64,000 nt of DNA from Candidatus Obscuribacteraceae bacterium (GTDB taxonomy: Bacteria > Cyanobacteriota > Vampirovibrionia > Obscuribacterales > Obscuribacteraceae), in the NCBI GenBank assembly GCA_044229845.1, contig JBGASG010000010.1, positions 96,001 to 160,000 of the forward strand, given 5' to 3'. Below, in pieces: positions 12,029 to 23,639 of the stretch (position 1 is its first letter; each line of letters opens with the position of its first letter). A model generated the notes under the pieces. It had not been told where the DNA came from. It was given only the letters and a program-made list of their open reading frames with translations, and did no database searches. A program made the position numbers and the translations under genes.

Positions 12029-13477
12029 ATGCGCGCTCGCTCTGTTTCGCTTGTTGTTGGCTGCCTGATGGCTCTGGGCGCCGGTTTCCCGGCTCTGGCC
12101 GCCGATGACGGCTCGTCCTCGATGGATTCCATATGGCTGGATGCCCCGCAGCCGGCGCCTGCAGGCGAATCGCCCAATCCGGCATCGCCGAAGCCCACCA
12201 CCACGACGACGACTCCCAAATCCAACAAGACCAAGTCCAGCCCCGCTTCTAAAGAATCAAAAGAGCCTAAACAATCTAAAGAGCCGGCCGCCGTCGCCCC
12301 GTCATTAACACCCGCACCGGCTATCGAAACTTCGGCCGATTCAGCCGCCGGCACCACGGCCGCTCCGTCGACCGCCACCACGACCGGCGGTGCCGCGCCC
12401 GCCGAAACGCAGCCCAACACTGTTGCCCCCATGGTCACCCTCGATTATTTCAAGACCAGCTCGCTGGTCACAAAAGGAGGCTGGCCCGGCGTCGGTCCCT
12501 TCAAAGAAGAAGGCTCGCCGCTCGACCTCAGCGACCCGAACGGCAACCGATTGAAAGTGGACGTCAGCGGCACACAGGTGACACGCGCCGAACTGAATTT
12601 GCAAAAACCGAGCAACGACTTCCTGGATGTGCAAATGAACGCTGACTTTCTGCTCGAATCGGTAGGCGTGAAGCCTAAGAAGATCGTCGAGTTCAATGAG
12701 CAGCTGGAAAAGAATCGCACTCTCGTCACCAAGGGCGATGGCATGCCGAACATGACCGTCGGCAGATATTTTGTCGCCATCCAGAAATCCGCTGCCGATT
12801 CCTCTGCGCTGGCAATTTCCGTGAATAGTTTGGATGCCGATCGGTCGGCTCTGCAAGCTCATTCTGTCTCGCAAGAAACACCGCCGCAAACCACGGGCAA
12901 CAAAATCGCCGGCATTTTCGGTCTGAACAAGACGCCGCAAACCTCGTCCACCGCAACGCAGCCAGCCAAGACACAGCCGGTCAAGACGACTCCTGCCAAG
13001 ACGACGCCGCCCGCCACCACCGGTGGCAGCACGGCTGCGGCATCTCCCGGCGGCGATTTGAAAGAAACCTTCCAGACTCTCGTGCGCAACTGGCAAAACC
13101 TGAAGAAAACTGCCGTGCGCCAGAAGCAGACCAGCGACCTGGCCCAGTTTCTCGCCGGGCAGGCGCTCTCCCGGCAGACTACCGCCATTAAATGGTTGGT
13201 CGACAACAAACAGTATTACGACATCACTCCGCAATCGGTAGTGGTTGAGAAAGTCTCGCCGGTCACTGCCGGCAACGACAAAAAGTTCCTCGTGTCCACA
13301 GTCATCAAAGAACACAGCAAGCGCTGTGAAGACGCCGGCAAGGTCGTCCTGGACAAAGACGACACTTACAAAGTCAATTACACCATTGAGAAGATCGGCG
13401 ACCGCTGGTTTATCGTCGACTCGGCGGTGCCCAGCGCAACAACCAAGCCCGCGGCGGGCGGCAAAACGGGCCGATAA
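12029..13477 (+). CDS. Secreted protein with P/T-rich linkers and C-terminal ARC6/Ftn2 IMS-like (DUF4101) domain
   Basis: Signal peptide ending ALA; C-terminal LVRNWQNLKKTA..LAGQAL..YY..YKVNYTIEKIGDRWFI. Confidence 0.65.
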   Translation: MRARSVSLVVGCLMALGAGFPALAADDGSSSMDSIWLDAPQPAPAGESPNPASPKPTTTTTTPKSNKTKSSPASKESKEPKQSKEPAAVAPSLTPAPAIETSADSAAGTTAAPSTATTTGGAAPAETQPNTVAPMVTLDYFKTSSLVTKGGWPGVGPFKEEGSPLDLSDPNGNRLKVDVSGTQVTRAELNLQKPSNDFLDVQMNADFLLESVGVKPKKIVEFNEQLEKNRTLVTKGDGMPNMTVGRYFVAIQKSAADSSALAISVNSLDADRSALQAHSVSQETPPQTTGNKIAGIFGLNKTPQTSSTATQPAKTQPVKTTPAKTTPPATTGGSTAAASPGGDLKETFQTLVRNWQNLKKTAVRQKQTSDLAQFLAGQALSRQTTAIKWLVDNKQYYDITPQSVVVEKVSPVTAGNDKKFLVSTVIKEHSKRCEDAGKVVLDKDDTYKVNYTIEKIGDRWFIVDSAVPSATTKPAAGGKTGR

Positions 13478-13480
13478 CCG

Positions 13481-15064
13481 ATGAAGCCTGGTCGCACCCC
13501 GAGACGCCATCTGCTTCTCTTGAGCGCCACCGCGGCAATAGTTCTGTCCGCGTCCATGCTTTTGACGGGTCGCGCGGCGATACCGCAAGTGATGGCACAA
13601 GAGCGTGGCCGCGGTCTTTCGATTTCCGATCATACTGGTAAACCCCTGATACCGAGCGCGGTGCTGCGCGTGGGCAAGGACGTTTATTTCTTGACACCGG
13701 ACGACATCTGGTTCGTCGAAAATGCCACCGATTTCCTGCCGCCGTTGCAGCAACTGCGCGCCCGCCCGATCACGCCCGCGAAAGGCAAAGTCAACAACAT
13801 TCCGCTGCACGAATTGAGTGACTTCGCCTACGTACCCAAACGAAACAGCATTGCGGTGCTCGACAAAACCGGCGACGTTTTTGAATACTCGCTGTCCACA
13901 AAAAAATGGAGCCTGCTCATGGACAGCGCGCAGTCGGCCGGCGAACCGGATTATGTGGAACTGTGCGCAGCGCCCGAGCATATTTGCCTTCTCGATCCTG
14001 AGCTAAATCAACTTCTGCAGCTGCCGGGAGCCAACCGCGTTTTCTCGGGAACAGCGCCGTGGCGCGTGCATAAAGGTGATGTCAGTGTCGCCGACGGCGT
14101 GGCCATTGCTTACGATGGTGCCGCCCTCGTGTTGCATCGCAACGGACGCATCACCACATTCGGGTCCGGCGGCAGAGCCCAGACCAAAATGGACTGGAGG
14201 CCACCGTCCCACGTCCGACCGACACGTTTTTATGCCTGCGCCAACGGCGGACCTCTCTACATCGTCGACCGCGAAAACAATCGCGTGCTGGCACTGATCC
14301 GCTCCAATCAAAAACTGGCCTGGCAGCACTATCTATTTAGTGCCGACAGCGATCTGCGCGGATTAATCCCCGGGCAGAATGCATTCTGGATTCTCGACCG
14401 CAACAAGCTGATATTGCGCAGTCTCGCCGATGTGGATGAGCCGGATGCCAAACCTAATTCGCGAGTTCTTGACGAGCGCCTTGCTGGCTTTGCTATGCCA
14501 ATCAAGAATAGCGCTCTGCCTCGCCATCCAGGAGTATTTCCGGGTTCACGCCGCCTCTACAGGCGGGGCATTCACGCTGGACTGGATCTGTTTCATGACC
14601 CCGGCTGCGGTACCAACGTAAAAATGGATACACCGGTGCTGGCGGTAGAAAGTGGCACCGTCATCCGCGCCGACTGGGGATATAAAGATCTGCCGCCGGC
14701 GCAGTACTGGGCGAAGATTCAAGCCTGCCGCAGCCAGCATGACTGCTCGGAAATCAACGAGAATTTTTTCCGCGGACGGCAAATCGAAATCGACCATGGC
14801 AACGGCGTGATTACTCGTTACGCGCACTTGAATGGAATCAAGAAGGGATTGAAAGTGGGCGCCCGGGTGTCAAGAGGCGAACATATAGGCTATGTGGGCG
14901 TTTCGGGAACCAGCAACACGTTGCCAGGACATCCCAAGTATCCGCACCTGCACTTCGAAGTCTGGATCGATGGAAAATACCTGGGTTACGGTTTAACGCC
15001 GGAAGAAACAATTTGCCAATTTGAGGATATATTTGGAGCAATCTGCAAGCGAGGCGGTTCATGA
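13481..15064 (+). CDS. Exported M23 family metallopeptidase with N-terminal beta-propeller-like region
   Basis: HAGLD (HxxxD), YAHL, HLHFEV (HxH); N-terminal hydrophobic signal. Confidence 0.88.
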   Translation: MKPGRTPRRHLLLLSATAAIVLSASMLLTGRAAIPQVMAQERGRGLSISDHTGKPLIPSAVLRVGKDVYFLTPDDIWFVENATDFLPPLQQLRARPITPAKGKVNNIPLHELSDFAYVPKRNSIAVLDKTGDVFEYSLSTKKWSLLMDSAQSAGEPDYVELCAAPEHICLLDPELNQLLQLPGANRVFSGTAPWRVHKGDVSVADGVAIAYDGAALVLHRNGRITTFGSGGRAQTKMDWRPPSHVRPTRFYACANGGPLYIVDRENNRVLALIRSNQKLAWQHYLFSADSDLRGLIPGQNAFWILDRNKLILRSLADVDEPDAKPNSRVLDERLAGFAMPIKNSALPRHPGVFPGSRRLYRRGIHAGLDLFHDPGCGTNVKMDTPVLAVESGTVIRADWGYKDLPPAQYWAKIQACRSQHDCSEINENFFRGRQIEIDHGNGVITRYAHLNGIKKGLKVGARVSRGEHIGYVGVSGTSNTLPGHPKYPHLHFEVWIDGKYLGYGLTPEETICQFEDIFGAICKRGGS

Positions 15065-17691
15065 ATACGGATAAACCAACATCTGAATTGGGACACGGCA
15101 TCACTTTTCTTATGGTGGCACTGTCTATCACCATCGGCATGTCGCAAACTGCTGCCGATGCATCAAGCAAGGACCGAGCCAGACACCAGGCTATTCCGAA
15201 ATCGGCAAAAGTGGCATTGAAGATCGCCACCAAAGAAAAAATCGCCGCTAACGAAAAAGACGCCAAGGCTGATAACGAGAAAGACAAAGACAAGAAAGAC
15301 GCAAAAGTCGACAAAGACGTAAAGTCCGATAAAGGCAAAGCCAAGGAAGAGAAGAAAGCCGCCGACGGAAAAGCGAAGGCCGACGCCAAGGCTGCCAAAA
15401 AAGACGCCAAAGACTCGAAAGCCGCAAAAGACGAGAAAGCGGAAGGCAAGGGTTTCTTCAAAGGAATTTTCGGCAAGGAAGAAGAAGGCAAAAACGCCAC
15501 TGCCAAAGACGGCAAAGCCGAGACTTCCCCGTCCGCCGGTAAGTCTCCGTCCGCCGGCGATGATGCCGCCAGCGGTGCCGCAGCAGCAACTCCACCGGCA
15601 GTGCCGTCCGCACCGGCTCCAACACCAGCGCCGGCGGCAGCCAAACCGGTAGCGCAGGCAGCCACCGACAGCGCCACCGGAGCCGAGCCGAAATACATTC
15701 CAGATGCCGCTTTGATCAGCATTCTCAAAGACATTAGCAAGAGCCTGGCAGACAACGACGACATCAAAAATATCGAGGATCCGGCTCAGAAAGTCGCCAT
15801 CAAACTGGCTGCCGATACACTCACGAAAGCGCTTGCCGATCCGGATCTCGGCACCAACCGGATCATCACCGCCGAAGACCGCCCTCGCGTGGAGACCCGC
15901 CTGGTCGCCGAGACCTGGGACTCACAACTGGTACAGCTGGGACCGAACTGCACGGCATCGTTGTCGACGCTGTGGGCGAAGCGAGCCAACGGACTGGTCA
16001 ACATTTCTATCGCGGGCACTTGCGGATGCAAGGCGGTTCCCGGTAGCACTACGGATACAAAGATCGGCGAGTGGATTGTCGTGTTGACTGGCAAATCGGC
16101 AATCGACAAAGGATTTGATATTCAAACCCAGCAGGAGGTGCCCTTCTGGTTGGGCAAGCTGAGTGGATTTACGGTCGAAGCAACCGTTTGCTCACAGGAG
16201 GCGCAGGAAACCGGAAAAAAGCCTCAGTCGCCAGCACTGGTTCTCAAATCAGTGCTGACGGAACGCGGTCGCAAGCACCTGGAAGCCGTGACGGCATGGC
16301 AAAGCGCACAGAAACTGGCAATCTTGCAAGCGGAGCAAGAACGCACACGCACTGAAGAAGAAGCCAAACTGGCAGCCGAGGTCAAAGCCAAAGAACAAGA
16401 CCGGCTGTCTATGGAAGCTAAAATTGCCGCCGAGAAAGAGCGGGTCGAAAACGAAGTGCGCGCCAAACTAGCTGCCGAAGCGGCGCTCAAGGCTGTAGCT
16501 GAGCAGAAAGCTAAAGAACTGGCGGAAGCCGAAGCACGCGCAAAAATGGACGAAAAGGCGAAAGCCGAAGCGGCCGCCGCCGAAGCTGAAGCCAAAGCGA
16601 AAGCCGAAGAAGAGGCAAAAGCCAAGTTAGAGGCGGAAGCAAAAGCCAAAGTAGAAGCGGAAGCGAAAGCCAAGGCCGAAGCTGAGGCGAAAGCCAAAGC
16701 CGAATTGGAAGCGAAAGCGGAATTAGAAGCCAAGGCCAAAGCCGAAGCGAAAGCCAAGGAAGAAGCCGAAGCCAAAGCCAAGGCCGAAGAAGATGCGGCA
16801 AAGGCAAAAGTCGCTGCCACCACTCCCAGTACCAACTACAACTATGGCAGTCGCACTTGGGACAGCCCGGCGCCTGTACAAGCCAGCGGACTGCCTAAAT
16901 CAGGCAGCGGCAAGACTACGCTACTTGTGCCTGACCGTGCAGTCGCCGGCCAGTATGTAACGGCAGCGGCTGTAAATGAAAGCAACGTCGGCGAATCATA
17001 CGTCGAACTGGCATTCAATGGTGCCGCCTTGACGACAGCAAACGACGGAACCGTTCATTATATGGTGCCTGAAGATTCAGCGCCTGGTCCGACGATGGTC
17101 GTCACCTTACCTGGTAATCCTCTTGATGCACCGAAATCCATGGAAGTGCTGCAACCTTTGATGGTGCCGGCTACACAGCAGGTGCCGCGCATTGATAAAG
17201 CCAACCCGATGGTGGCGGCCGGCGAGGTATTAACCATCGACGGTCACAGTTTCGATGGAGTCGGCGACAACAATCGCGTGATTGTGGATGGTGCCGGCGA
17301 TGCCAAAGTATTGGCCGCCTCACCGGTGCAACTGAAAGTGGAGTTGCCGCGCGGGATCGCCGCCGGGCGCCATTCAATAAGCATCAGCACAGCCGGGTTG
17401 CGCAGCAATCCGATGTTTGTAGATGTCGTCTCGGTGCGCATCGACACGCTCGGCAAAGACGACCTCAAACGGATCAAGGTCTGCGTGCTCGGCACTCAAA
17501 ACAAAGTGACGCTTAAGCTCACAAATCGCTCTCCCGAGGTGGTGAGATTAGCCAAAGGCGACGAGCAATTCGTGACGACGGCAGGCGGTACCGATAACTA
17601 TGCAATGGTCACCGCTCAGCGCGTCGGCAAAGGCGCGGTGAACATCAACGCCCGGGTTGAGCCGCCCACAGCAGTCAGCCGCGCGTACTAG
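15061..17691 (+). CDS. Large exported protein with K/D-rich region, TolA-like AEAKAK helix and C-terminal IPT/TIG-like domain
   Basis: Signal peptide; long A/E/K repeat; GEVLTIDGHSF...VLAASPVQLKVELP Ig-like pattern; ATGA overlap. Confidence 0.7.
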   Translation: MNTDKPTSELGHGITFLMVALSITIGMSQTAADASSKDRARHQAIPKSAKVALKIATKEKIAANEKDAKADNEKDKDKKDAKVDKDVKSDKGKAKEEKKAADGKAKADAKAAKKDAKDSKAAKDEKAEGKGFFKGIFGKEEEGKNATAKDGKAETSPSAGKSPSAGDDAASGAAAATPPAVPSAPAPTPAPAAAKPVAQAATDSATGAEPKYIPDAALISILKDISKSLADNDDIKNIEDPAQKVAIKLAADTLTKALADPDLGTNRIITAEDRPRVETRLVAETWDSQLVQLGPNCTASLSTLWAKRANGLVNISIAGTCGCKAVPGSTTDTKIGEWIVVLTGKSAIDKGFDIQTQQEVPFWLGKLSGFTVEATVCSQEAQETGKKPQSPALVLKSVLTERGRKHLEAVTAWQSAQKLAILQAEQERTRTEEEAKLAAEVKAKEQDRLSMEAKIAAEKERVENEVRAKLAAEAALKAVAEQKAKELAEAEARAKMDEKAKAEAAAAEAEAKAKAEEEAKAKLEAEAKAKVEAEAKAKAEAEAKAKAELEAKAELEAKAKAEAKAKEEAEAKAKAEEDAAKAKVAATTPSTNYNYGSRTWDSPAPVQASGLPKSGSGKTTLLVPDRAVAGQYVTAAAVNESNVGESYVELAFNGAALTTANDGTVHYMVPEDSAPGPTMVVTLPGNPLDAPKSMEVLQPLMVPATQQVPRIDKANPMVAAGEVLTIDGHSFDGVGDNNRVIVDGAGDAKVLAASPVQLKVELPRGIAAGRHSISISTAGLRSNPMFVDVVSVRIDTLGKDDLKRIKVCVLGTQNKVTLKLTNRSPEVVRLAKGDEQFVTTAGGTDNYAMVTAQRVGKGAVNINARVEPPTAVSRAY
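16520..16810 (+). repeat. Degenerate coding tandem repeat (AEAKAK/EAKAKAE)
   Basis: Repeated gccgaagcgaaagccaag-type units. Confidence 0.85.
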
Positions 17692-19634: not shown

Positions 19635-19663
19635 TTGCACGCCCCTAGCCGCCTGCCTATAAT
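19635..19663 (+). promoter_or_regulatory. Sigma70-type promoter for the five-paralogue operon
   Basis: TTGCAC-N17-TATAAT, ending 46 bp upstream of ATG 19710. Confidence 0.7.
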
Positions 19664-19709
19664 CCGAAGAAGCCCCACAAGTTCCCGTACCGTTGGCAGG
19701 AGAGAACAC

Positions 19710-20468
19710 ATGGCTAACACTGCGCACCAGTCCGGTGCGGAGGCGCAACTAGACGCGCCCGCAGCCGGCGGCGATAACAACGCCACCTTGAAATTGGACA
19801 TCAAAGAAATCATGTTACCAGCGCTGAACGATGCTTCGGTCCAGGCTTTCATGATGTCCGTCAACGACATGAAAAAAGGCGGATGCGGCTGCGCAATACC
19901 AAGCACCGACATCTACGATGTAAAAGATTGGACCAGAAGAGACATCGATTCGCAATTCGGGCTCGTACGTCGCGACGAAGGCTACTCTTTCGAGCGCATC
20001 AGGGGTGCCGACGGCAACACCTATGCACTCGACATGGACTACAGCCACGGCGGACCCGGCAGACCGACGGTGTACGAAAGGGACATCTACGGTCATAAAG
20101 TCGAAGTCACCGATCCCGATGTAATCAATGACATCGCGGCACGCGGAAACTACCTGGCAGTCATTGATGCCGCCCAAGATCGCATTGCGAAACTGGGCTG
20201 GACAGACGACCAGCGAAAGGACGCTCAACACATCCTCGATGCCGTCGGCGACAAAAATCCTGAGGCTCTGCAAACGGCTGTCATGCAATACCTATTGGAT
20301 GGCGGCGACTTCCAGAAACTCCTGGTTGGACTTGGCAGTCTGGCGAAGGTACAGGTCAAAGACCTGGACATGAACTGGAGGCACGGACCAGATCATGACA
20401 CCATGAGCATCACGTTCGCCGGTTCCGACCACAGCAACTTCGACTTCACCTGGCCACCAAAATCATAA
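19710..20468 (+). CDS. Hypothetical protein, paralogue 1 of 5
   Basis: AGGAG SD; shared motifs DW..D...FG, I.G.DG.TY, D..G..V.VTDP, YL..GG. Confidence 0.85.
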   Translation: MANTAHQSGAEAQLDAPAAGGDNNATLKLDIKEIMLPALNDASVQAFMMSVNDMKKGGCGCAIPSTDIYDVKDWTRRDIDSQFGLVRRDEGYSFERIRGADGNTYALDMDYSHGGPGRPTVYERDIYGHKVEVTDPDVINDIAARGNYLAVIDAAQDRIAKLGWTDDQRKDAQHILDAVGDKNPEALQTAVMQYLLDGGDFQKLLVGLGSLAKVQVKDLDMNWRHGPDHDTMSITFAGSDHSNFDFTWPPKS

Positions 20469-20498
20469 CGGCAACTAGCACCTGGGGAGATCACATTC

Positions 20499-21308
20499 AT
20501 GAGCTACGACACGCACCATTCTGGTGCCCAGATTGACGCAGACACACAAGCGATCAGTTTAGCCGGCAGAGATGCAAGCGGCGACTCGCAGACATCTTCA
20601 TGGCAAGCCAACGCTTCCTTGTTGTCCTTCGATCGAGAAAGCATGCAAGTGGCTCTGGCATCTATCAAGGCGATGGAGAATCGCGAGAGCGGAGTTTCTG
20701 CCGTTACTCCTGGACAAGTTTTGATCACGGACCTGTCCTCGATCAAAGACTGGGAAAAGGTAGACGTGAAAGGACAGTTCGGCATCACGCGCACAAAAAC
20801 CGGCACCGGCGAGTCACTCCATATCGATAGAATTCCGGGACCGGACGGCAAAACCTACGCGCTGGAGTACACCAGAGAAGGTCAAGATGCCAAAGCCTCT
20901 TTCTTCGAAGTGGACGCCAACGGACAGCGCACGGCAGTGACAGATCCCGCACTGCTGCAAGAACTGAGCAAGCGAGCAACTTTGATCAACGTTGTCGACC
21001 TGTCAAAAGATCGCCTGTCGGCTCTGGCATTGACGCCAGAGCAAAAGTCCGCACTGGACTCAATAGCAAATGCAGTCAAAGCACGAGATAGTGCGGCCCT
21101 GAAAGACGCGATCGATGGCTTCCTCAAGAATGGTGGCACCAAGGAAACTCTCTTCATGGCGCTGCCCGCCGAACTGCAGGTAAAGACCGCCAATGCCATG
21201 GTCGCCGGCGGTCACAGCAAAGAGGGCGTCGATACGATCTCGCTCCTGGTATACAACGAAGCGAGCGGAACGTTCGACTTCAATTTCACTTACACCTTTC
21301 CAAAATGA
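20499..21308 (+). CDS. Hypothetical protein, paralogue 2 of 5
   Basis: GGGGAG SD; DWEKVD..QFG, IPGPDGKTY, DANG..VTDP, FLKNGG. Confidence 0.85.
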   Translation: MSYDTHHSGAQIDADTQAISLAGRDASGDSQTSSWQANASLLSFDRESMQVALASIKAMENRESGVSAVTPGQVLITDLSSIKDWEKVDVKGQFGITRTKTGTGESLHIDRIPGPDGKTYALEYTREGQDAKASFFEVDANGQRTAVTDPALLQELSKRATLINVVDLSKDRLSALALTPEQKSALDSIANAVKARDSAALKDAIDGFLKNGGTKETLFMALPAELQVKTANAMVAGGHSKEGVDTISLLVYNEASGTFDFNFTYTFPK

Positions 21309-21317
21309 GGCTTTCTT

Positions 21318-22058
21318 ATGAGCAACCAGTCACACCCGGAGAGTCCGGGTTTACCAGAAACAAAGTTGATCAAGCCGGAGCAAGCGCCGCCCGCGATCAG
21401 TGGTGGTGACCTCCTGGTGGTCGGCGACACCAATCAGATGAATGGCGTCCTGCAATGTTTCAGAGACATGGAGAGAAGACCCGGATTTCAGGGCAGCACG
21501 GCGGATCCTTTTCAAGTGGAGGACTGGTCGAATATCAATGCTGCCACCACATATGGAGTCGTAAACGATGGTGGCGGGTATTCGATAAATCAAATTCCGG
21601 GCATCGACGGAGAGACATACAGTTATCGTTTCAACCGGGTTATGGATGGCATCAGTCAACGCGTATACAAGCATGATGCTTTCGGCAACGACGTCGAAGT
21701 CACCGATCAGCGCGTGCTCATGGAAATATCCCGTAAGGCTAATTTGATTCACCGCGTCGATGCAAGCCAGCAGTTGCTCTCCACTAAAACCGACGAGCAA
21801 AAAGAGATGCTGGACAAGATGGTGACGGCAGTGAAGAACGACGACATGGCTCGAATCGTAAATCTGCTGACGCAATACGTGCAGGCCGGCTCATCGCTGA
21901 AAGACTGCGGCGACGCATTCGAAGCGGCCGCCACTATTCGCAACGCCGGTGCGTCCTTCGTCTTCCAGCCGAACACCGACTCGGCAACACTTACGATCAG
22001 GTACAAACGCGCAGACGGCGAGGAGAGAGAACTCGACGTCACAATGCCCAAGCAGTAA
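21318..22058 (+). CDS. Hypothetical protein, paralogue 3 of 5
   Basis: GAGG SD; DWSNIN..YG, IPGIDGETY, DAFG..VTD. Confidence 0.85.
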   Translation: MSNQSHPESPGLPETKLIKPEQAPPAISGGDLLVVGDTNQMNGVLQCFRDMERRPGFQGSTADPFQVEDWSNINAATTYGVVNDGGGYSINQIPGIDGETYSYRFNRVMDGISQRVYKHDAFGNDVEVTDQRVLMEISRKANLIHRVDASQQLLSTKTDEQKEMLDKMVTAVKNDDMARIVNLLTQYVQAGSSLKDCGDAFEAAATIRNAGASFVFQPNTDSATLTIRYKRADGEERELDVTMPKQ

Positions 22059-22069
22059 GGAGAGACAAT

Positions 22070-22834
22070 ATGAGCGATGTAACACACCCGCTCGGTGTGG
22101 GCTCCCGCGCGGGCGATAACCCGACGCTCAGGCAACCTCTGGATGACACCAGAGAAACTAACCTGAATGTGTTCGACAAGCAAAGTATGACGGAGGCGCT
22201 GGCGGCCATTCGGGCGATGCAGCTTAAGGATGAACCGCTGTCGCCGATACCGGCCGGCACGGAAATTAAGGATGTGTTCGGCAAACACGACTGGGAAAAC
22301 ATCGATTTAGGGAAAGAATTCGGATTTACCAAGACCGAAGACAAACTGGCGATCGAGAAAATTCCCGGCGATGACGGCAAAACCTACAGCATGGAACTCG
22401 ACAGTAAAGACGGTCGGCTAACCGTCTGGGAGGTCGATGCTCAGGGCAACAAGAAGAATGTTGAAGATCCGCTGATCATCTTAGAGATTCTGCAGAAAGC
22501 AAAATATCTCGAAGCCATCCATGACGGAAAACAGTTTCTCGATAGTTTGAACTTAATGCCTGAACAAAAGGGCGCGCTCGATGACGTGATAAATGGCATC
22601 AAGGACAAAGATCCGCAGGCCGTAAAAGATGCTGTTGATGCTTACCTGAAGGCAGGCGGTGACCCGTCCAGTCTGTTCCACGCGCTGGGCACCCTTCTCA
22701 TGCTCCGTCAGGTGGAGGGCATCATTGTGGGCATTCACAAAGTGGACGGCGGCGACAGCATCATGATTGGCTTCGGCAAAGGATCCGACAAGCCGGACGT
22801 GATCATCGACCTGCCGAAACAGATAAAGGCATGA
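22070..22834 (+). CDS. Hypothetical protein, paralogue 4 of 5
   Basis: AAGGAG SD; DWENID..FG, IPGDDGKTY, DAQG..VEDP, YLKAGG. Confidence 0.85.
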   Translation: MSDVTHPLGVGSRAGDNPTLRQPLDDTRETNLNVFDKQSMTEALAAIRAMQLKDEPLSPIPAGTEIKDVFGKHDWENIDLGKEFGFTKTEDKLAIEKIPGDDGKTYSMELDSKDGRLTVWEVDAQGNKKNVEDPLIILEILQKAKYLEAIHDGKQFLDSLNLMPEQKGALDDVINGIKDKDPQAVKDAVDAYLKAGGDPSSLFHALGTLLMLRQVEGIIVGIHKVDGGDSIMIGFGKGSDKPDVIIDLPKQIKA

Positions 22835-22853
22835 AACACAGGAAGGTGACACC

Positions 22854-23639
22854 ATGAGTCAACTCGAACATTCGCGTACAACCGGCGACCAGGGAGCGCA
22901 CCAATATCCGCCCCCGGAGGCGCTTGGCGAGCAGGAGCGGCACCCTGGCTTCAACCCGGATGAGATCCTCAACGTTACCAATCAACAACAGCTAAGTGAT
23001 GCGCTGAGCGCCATTCGCGCCATGACGGGCTCGACAGAAGCAAGCAACTCCAAGAAGTTACCTGACCCTTTCGCTATAGAGGACTGGAGCGGAATCGATG
23101 CCAAATCGCTATATGGAGTGACTGAGACTGAGAATGGTTGGAAGATTGATAGAGTCCCTGGACTGAACGGCAAAGCATACTCCGTCGTCTTCGAACGAGA
23201 CGAAGGCGGAACCGGCTTTACCGAACGCGTGTATCAAGTCGGTGCCGACGGCGAACTAAAGGAAGTGACGACGCCATACATCGCGGTGCCGGCGATGCGG
23301 ACAGCAGATTTGATTCATCGTGTCTCTGAAAGCCAGGCGGTGCTTGCCAATCCAGAAATCAACGAAGCACAGCACCAGATTCTCGATTCTCTCGTTCAGC
23401 ACATCAGCGAGGGGAATGACGACATGGACCAGCTCGTCAAAGACTACCTGGAAGAAGGCGGCACATTCAAAGAGTTTGTTGAAGCGCTGAAGGCCGCGGC
23501 CGTAGTTAAGGGACTCGACGATGCGGTCATCGAATACAAGCCGAATGTGGACTACGCGCAGGAACTCCGGGTGACGTTTCCACTGCAAGACGAAGTCGGT
23601 TACACCTATCGCTTCGACCCGGTGAGCAAGCCGCTTTAG
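22854..23639 (+). CDS. Hypothetical protein, paralogue 5 of 5
   Basis: AGGAAGG SD; DWSGID..YG, VPGLNGKAY, ADG..VTTP, YLEEGG. Confidence 0.85.
   Translation: MSQLEHSRTTGDQGAHQYPPPEALGEQERHPGFNPDEILNVTNQQQLSDALSAIRAMTGSTEASNSKKLPDPFAIEDWSGIDAKSLYGVTETENGWKIDRVPGLNGKAYSVVFERDEGGTGFTERVYQVGADGELKEVTTPYIAVPAMRTADLIHRVSESQAVLANPEINEAQHQILDSLVQHISEGNDDMDQLVKDYLEEGGTFKEFVEALKAAAVVKGLDDAVIEYKPNVDYAQELRVTFPLQDEVGYTYRFDPVSKPL

Follow-up and report, generated by a model that had tools for sequence, protein, structure and literature searches.

A tandem array of five undescribed paralogues in an Obscuribacteraceae bacterium and its possible relation to protein export

The window analysed here, 64,000 nucleotides of the genome of a Candidatus Obscuribacteraceae member, an uncultured bacterium that is related to cyanobacteria but not photosynthetic (assembly GCA_044229845.1, contig JBGASG010000010.1, positions 96,001 to 160,000), contains an array of five paralogous genes, g1 to g5, that encode acidic proteins of an undescribed family. 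The closest described systems are found among proteins associated with type IV secretion. The Xanthomonas X-Tfe effectors carry the XVIPCD, a C-terminal domain of ~120 amino acids (aa) with conserved motifs and a tail rich in glutamine, which is described as binding the all-alpha domain of the coupling protein (PMC8740702). The BID domain of the Bartonella Beps, present in single or several copies of variable sequence, is reported to be an export signal with secondary effector roles (PMC6509941). For Vampirovibrio chlorellavorus, a member of the same class as the bacterium considered here, protein delivery to prey by means of a type IV secretion system has been proposed (PMC4451040). Obscuribacter itself was described by its metabolism, in a report whose main text does not contain the term 'secretion' (PMC4040986). 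Within the partial coverage of our literature search, no description of the five-gene family or of an Obscuribacterales type IV machine was found.

We suggest, with a probability of roughly 0.4, that the five proteins are signal-peptide-less putative cargo of a chromosomal type IV secretion-like machine of the order. An initial annotation, made from the sequence alone, had offered three functional options: a hetero-oligomeric assembly, an effector or ligand repertoire, and a poly-immunity array. Of these, an exported repertoire is circumstantially the most consistent. In the proposed mechanism, export would be mediated by a shared domain at the end of the proteins, serving as a handle or carrier in the manner of XVIPCD or BID domains. 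A beta module specific to the genus would be the part that binds and has diversified, and an acidic, disordered tail would help with unfolding or targeting. The five represent a real, undescribed family in an ordinary tandem arrangement, for which an export role is plausible.

The likeness to XVIPCD is a works-like analogy: a domain of ~100-120 aa recurs across otherwise unlike proteins in a lineage whose type IV system and coupling protein are encoded on the chromosome. The domain is C-terminal in the five as in X-Tfe, a correspondence of position and rough size only, whereas the wider domain to which it probably belongs is often central or N-terminal. In addition, the five have no sequence match to XVIPCD, no glutamine-rich tail and no recognisable toxin domain in front. 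Pfam contains an XVIPCD model, and it matched neither the five nor the wider domain. The wider domain is similar to BID in occurring in single or multiple copies per protein. However, BID folds as a bundle of four helices with a hook, whereas the module here is predicted to comprise three short helices and a beta meander, and BID has a positively charged tail, while the five acidic proteins end with one or two lysines. BID is absent among the fold-search matches listed for our two models, which does not exclude it. The five probably belong to neither XVIPCD nor BID. WXG100/type VII pairs are helical hairpins of ~100 aa with a central WxG motif; the five do not fit this pattern, being mixed alpha/beta proteins of 246-269 aa lacking a Pfam match. 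The Vampirovibrio system is T-type, with two of its three operons on plasmids, whereas the VirB4-like ATPase found here is chromosomal, matches the TraG P-loop and TraC models and not PF03135, and has a coupling ATPase found only in this order.

Layout, divergence and distribution of the array

Five co-oriented open reading frames (ORFs) on the plus strand occupy positions 19710-23639 of the window, with intergenic gaps of, in order, 30, 9, 11 and 19 bp. In the list below, dN/dS is the ratio of nonsynonymous to synonymous substitution rates against a congener (G001), and pLDDT and pTM are the predicted local distance difference test and template modelling scores.

19635..19663, + strand: likely sigma-70-type promoter, TTGCAC-17 nt-TATAAT, read from the sequence and conserved in the congener
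19710..20468, + strand: g1, subtype A, 252 aa; orthologue in G001 95% identical; dN/dS 0.076
20499..21308, + strand: g2, subtype A, 269 aa, of the five the nearest to the wider domain; dN/dS 0.20
21318..22058, + strand: g3, subtype B, 246 aa; dN/dS 0.19
22070..22834, + strand: g4, subtype A, 254 aa, the copy modelled; AlphaFold2 mean pLDDT 74, pTM 0.66; dN/dS 0.14
22070..22267, + strand: g4 residues 1-66, polar/acidic tail, predicted disordered; pLDDT <50, one low-confidence helix at 37-52
22277..22546, + strand: g4 residues 70-159, beta module and long helix; pLDDT 86-95, the part best conserved among the five
22559..22813, + strand: g4 residues 164-248, end module of three helices and three strands, likely a member of the wider Obscuribacteraceae domain
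22854..23639, + strand: g5, subtype B, 261 aa; dN/dS 0.23

The initial annotation regarded the five as deeply diverged paralogues, and homology was indeed recovered in 10/10 pairs (local identity 24-37%, E-values from 2e-9 to 4e-44), with alignment z-scores of 21.7-60.9 against 200 shuffles. Its account of gene lengths, spacing and ribosome-binding sites also agrees with our data: a Shine-Dalgarno-like purine-rich stretch precedes every ATG and is weakest at g3. Coding scores are typical of the genome. The proteins have isoelectric points of 4.5-5.0, and a crude hydropathy rule detected neither a signal peptide nor a transmembrane stretch in them, as had been stated. The colinear motifs differ in the number of copies that carry them. 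The motif I/V.G.(D/N)G..Y is present in all five proteins; the others are found in four (DW..(I/V)(D/N)....(F/Y)G, (Y/F)L..GG and PK near the end) or in three (L..I.AM and D..G....V.DP). The annotation saw no evident DNA similarity, but a weak one does exist over 36 nt of the strongest motif, where the copies reach 67-81% relative to the reference copy. His6 is invariant in the five paralogues, in a tail that is otherwise unconserved, and has been lost from g4 of the congener and from distant homologues.

The proposed subtype order A-A-B-A-B was reproduced. The g3+g5 clade has support of 99/97 and 98/95, and the motifs DPF..EDWS and LIHRV are confined to these two among the five. The subtype A genes g1, g2 and g4 cluster at 85-87, and the grouping of g2 with g4 is modestly supported in two trees (81/82 and 86/89). 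On the basis of the tree and the gene order, g2-g3 and g4-g5 appear to be a duplicated A-B gene pair beside an older A copy, g1. No recombination repeats were found between the array genes. Lineage-specific tandem arrays of orphan paralogues are characterised by birth through tandem duplication, long retention and narrow distribution, and the five-gene array is like them in its tandem-duplication origin, long-term retention and narrow range. The arrangement itself is not new, since tandem duplication commonly leads to such arrays; novelty lies in the family and in the unnamed domain that its members share.

The search for homologous arrays that the annotation had proposed led to G001, in which all five genes recur with unchanged order and flanks and one solitary copy is added. 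Orthologues group by array position in the tree. At a dS of about 0.3, the dN/dS of the five genes is 0.08-0.23, vs. 0.003-0.06 for four neighbouring genes. These data bear out the idea of an old, maintained diversification. In the congener, g4 (L012:11057-11773) has lost 16 aa in frame inside the end-module helices and g5 (L012:11800-12555) is 10 aa shorter; both deletions coincide with recurring short sequence stretches. The solitary sixth copy (L013:547-1332), which has no counterpart in the genome studied here, lies at the edge of a region with genes that we take to be RecD-like, NurA/HerA-like and toxin-antitoxin-like.

The family has a narrow range. Full-length copies occur in 2/61 relatives and in 2/104 family genomes, 12 others showing weak partial matches only, and the genome contig collection searched contains only two array loci. 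Among 1.84 billion representatives searched, 13 matched, nine of them family members and four look-alikes. Five of the nine are distant full-length proteins (P0008, P0009, P0010, P0012 and P0015); P0013, P0014, P0016 and P0017 were discarded as repeat or helix look-alikes. P0005, in which the front of g1 is fused to a PF08450 domain on one 1.5 kb contig, is likely a chimeric assembly. The array relatives and cluster members are labelled Ca. Obscuribacterales. Among 597 stretches selected with two patterns from Joint Genome Institute (JGI) metagenomes, no further array was confirmed. There was no credible match for the five in Pfam (best E-value 0.086), NCBIfam, PADLOC, PHROGs or PDB sequences, and the ESM Atlas yielded only leads below 0.9, or none. 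The family is therefore unrecognised in these databases, as the annotation had it, although its end module likely belongs to a wider unnamed domain.

The claim of a near-consensus promoter holds in part. The -10 box is TATAAT, and the congener (TTGCAT-17-TATAAT) keeps the hexamers and the spacing while 5/17 spacer bases have changed; however, the -35 box matches consensus at 3/6 positions only and the element is below the threshold of a consensus scan. Likewise, the operon is 'self-contained' in having its own promoter, but hemL lies 122 bp upstream in the same orientation and no terminator was found between the two, so read-through into the array is possible. Downstream, a Ser/Thr kinase gene converges on g5, the two genes overlapping by 4 nt at their stops. 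RNA libraries (four runs) gave scattered contigs of 150-270 nt at a depth of 2-9, equally on the array and its flanks, and are uninformative either way.

Protein anatomy and a wider domain of the Obscuribacteraceae

The AlphaFold2 model of g4 was built from a 14-row alignment. Over g4 residues 70-133, within the beta module, the mean pairwise identity among the five is 35%; the long helix follows at residues 134-159. The beta module is found in 2/107 genomes of the order and is genus-restricted among those searched. The end module, ~85-110 aa and C-terminal in all five, has its helices at g4 residues 164-212 and its strands at 218-248. Foldseek gave no match at E<=0.001 for g4 or for a model of the wider domain; the structural check proposed earlier recovered no characterised family. 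The best fold-search Z-scores, 6.9 and 6.7 for the two models, are within background and show neither difference nor a new fold. Both models match B12-binding cap-type helical bundles at Z 4.6-6.3 over 53-69 residues, also within background, and there is no corresponding Pfam match. In a protein with an HExxH-like motif (L033:1-1725), the last stretch is similar to the beta module's first half (E-value about 1e-4 in a small search); the order-wide search missed it. A possible circular permutation, with the beta module corresponding to the second half of the wider domain, is a lead only: the motifs are in register, but the probability is just 2%, with an E-value of 0.023.

The end module weakly matched two other genes of the same genome and proteins in 12 other family genomes. 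A profile of this wider domain finds matches in 33/47 family genomes and, weakly, in 2/153 others; with a deeper profile, 250 other genomes of the phylum gave no match, and the domain has no counterpart in Pfam. Its model shows the same helix-helix-helix-strand-strand-strand order as g4, followed by two more strands. Most members have two further strands and a helix, whereas the sequences of the five stop short of the last two strands. The domain occurs in single genes, in adjacent pairs (at least 7/20 loci), as repeats (2-3 copies inside proteins of 610-1865 aa) and behind LysM in a fusion with no evident signal peptide. Four more genes of the same genome carry it, each solitary (G000:C1:301486-302385, C1:775115-775927, C13:89835-90530 and C1:417478-417891). 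In another locus, a 1577-aa protein with a DSP-PTPase domain (L100:298-5028) is encoded directly upstream of a giant with two tandem copies.

Circularity was tested since the first wider-domain seeds had been chosen with the profile of the five. With these biased seeds, the profile-profile probability between end module and wider domain was 97%; with seeds barely seen by the profile of the five, hhalign gave 92% and 88%, and reversed controls about 1%. When the 2234 ORFs of 20 relative loci were ranked with a profile of the end module made from the five and 8 close relatives alone, 21 of the first 23 proved to be wider-family ORFs, and 14 of those 21 came from 15 loci not picked with the profile of the five. 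In the bacterium's own genome, the top non-self match of the end profile is a wider-family gene. Against a wider-domain profile built without the five, g2 scores an E-value of 2e-5, some of the seeds having been chosen through the five. Iteration from a two-sequence seed in the own genome did not recover the five. Taken together, the end module is likely homologous to the wider domain.

Putative export machinery and competing explanations

The genome contains secretins and pilus-type ATPases. Of the markers for flagella and for type III and type VI systems, FlhA/SctV, sheath and TssC, none was found in the 88%-complete assembly. PF03135 was not found either. A chromosomal VirB4-like ATPase matches the TraG P-loop model with an E-value of 9e-22, and a second copy lies elsewhere; the two regions are G000:C17:20254-33815 (L073, L074), with TraG P-loop/TraC matches, and the paralogue locus C13:100192-102914 (L070). 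The VirB4-like gene is surrounded by co-oriented unknown membrane or secreted genes, one of which weakly matches an outer-membrane efflux model. At G000:C18:209349-245162 (L095, L099), two TrwB/VirD4-like ATPases and one HerA-like ATPase, the three being encoded at 234896-245162, are followed on the same strand by four giant LysM proteins of 1165-3443 aa, which lack a signal peptide according to a crude rule; the two giants scanned both end in a DUF7718-like domain. G083 and G061, from two other genera, have the same layout of the cluster. At E<=1e-30, the coupling ATPase was detected in 45/47 and 2/2 genomes of the order's two families (47/49 others of the order) and in 0/151 other genomes of the class. 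The ATPase-LysM cluster looks like an undescribed order-level protein export locus.

Several results link the wider domain to export in a circumstantial manner. By analogy, its mobility resembles that of export handles. The acidic, signal-less, polar-tailed class of proteins, defined by a rule set with the five in view, comprises 121/3432 proteins of the genome; when the same rule, fixed beforehand, was applied to 244 ORFs of the relatives' loci, 12 of the 14 class proteins proved to be wider-family members. A number of findings weigh against the export reading. The five sit between hemL and the Ser/Thr kinase gene, unlinked to secretion genes, and wider-family genes lie in unrelated core neighbourhoods. 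The co-occurrence of domain and machine amounts to one phylogenetic event. In 14/47 and 2/2 genomes of the two families, which almost always carry the coupling ATPase, the domain went undetected. The five show no recognisable catalytic or toxin domain, and the DUF7718-like domain of the LysM giants has no match in them. Given the 88% completeness of the genome, the assembly may lack other export systems. An N-terminal export motif tuned on one set was enriched only there (13/116 vs. 2.8 in shuffled sequences) and failed on held-out sets (10/273 vs. 8.5, and 1/14); a first pattern had not been enriched, and a de novo motif search performed no better than on shuffles. A fuller version, in which an order-wide chromosomal type IV-like protein-exporting machine has its own new-fold cargo-recognition domain and the five form a genus-specific A/B heteromeric effector panel on that domain, has to be considered doubtful.

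Other explanations start from the same data. The five could be subunits of a cell-retained hetero-oligomer, either A-B heterodimers or a polymer, encoded in one operon for stoichiometry. One promoter with gaps of 9-30 bp, the retention of all five in order under purifying selection, a tree that fits duplication of an A-B pair, and several wider-family loci with two unlike neighbours are in line with this idea. Yet the congener has a solitary sixth copy and many wider-family genes are single, the loss of 16 aa from the helices of g4 was tolerated, and the five evolve faster than their four neighbours. We regard this assembly, which is compatible with export, as somewhat unlikely. It is improbable that the proteins are cytoplasmic adaptors or scaffolds of an expanded Ser/Thr-kinase signalling network, in which the disordered tails would be phosphorylated or serve for docking. 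The missing signal peptides, the polar tails and the many kinase paralogues, one of which abuts g5, would suit such a role, but the adjacent kinase is convergent and not co-transcribed, the sole recognisable fusion partner of the wider domain, LysM, is extracytoplasmic, and no fusion to a signalling domain was seen in the domain-bearing proteins scanned.

The poly-immunity option of the initial annotation, with each gene countering a different incoming toxin, fits poorly and appears very improbable. Such loci contain several unrelated immunity families in a row and differ in gene content from one close relative to the next; the array resembles them in its acidic, signal-less, diverged tandem proteins, but its genes are homologues of one family, their content and order are identical in the one available congener at a dS of about 0.3, there is no adjacent toxin gene, Pfam, PADLOC and NCBIfam give no convincing immunity-family match, and recombination repeats between the genes are missing. 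Finally, the resemblance to the wider domain may reflect generic helix patterning, the five being an isolated genus-level orphan family. Three results speak for this and against homology with the wider domain: a blind wider-domain profile misses the five (g2 E-value 1.4), blind alignments span 50-52 helical columns only and not the strands, and the wider profile also matches designed helical bundles (E-value 3e-4). On the other side stand the ranking of wider-family ORFs among the 2234, the strands that follow in the same order in both models, and the wider-family gene as top non-self match in the own genome, which make an isolated family quite improbable.

Two further observations concern other parts of the genome. 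Downstream of an M23 peptidase gene and an ARC6-like gene with an IMS domain, the window encodes an 876-aa secreted protein that contains a long repeat of the EAEAKAK type and weakly matches IPT/TIG (window 15061-17691, 12029-15064). Elsewhere, at G000:C13:76824-87349, five Ser/Thr kinase-like genes of 664-705 aa are arranged in tandem.

Through the array, an unnamed, mobile domain without a matching fold has come to light in most Obscuribacteraceae genomes, in an order that also carries a near-universal cluster of secretion-like ATPases. If this domain is an export handle, as the preferred reading of the five as putative cargo has it, it would be a marker for listing the secreted arsenal of an uncultured group, and would allow a direct test for attacks on, or manipulation of, other cells by these sludge-associated bacteria, as suggested for their relative Vampirovibrio. 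The effector-panel version, if true, would point to a predatory or host-associated lifestyle in a lineage whose descriptions to date have dealt mainly with metabolism.

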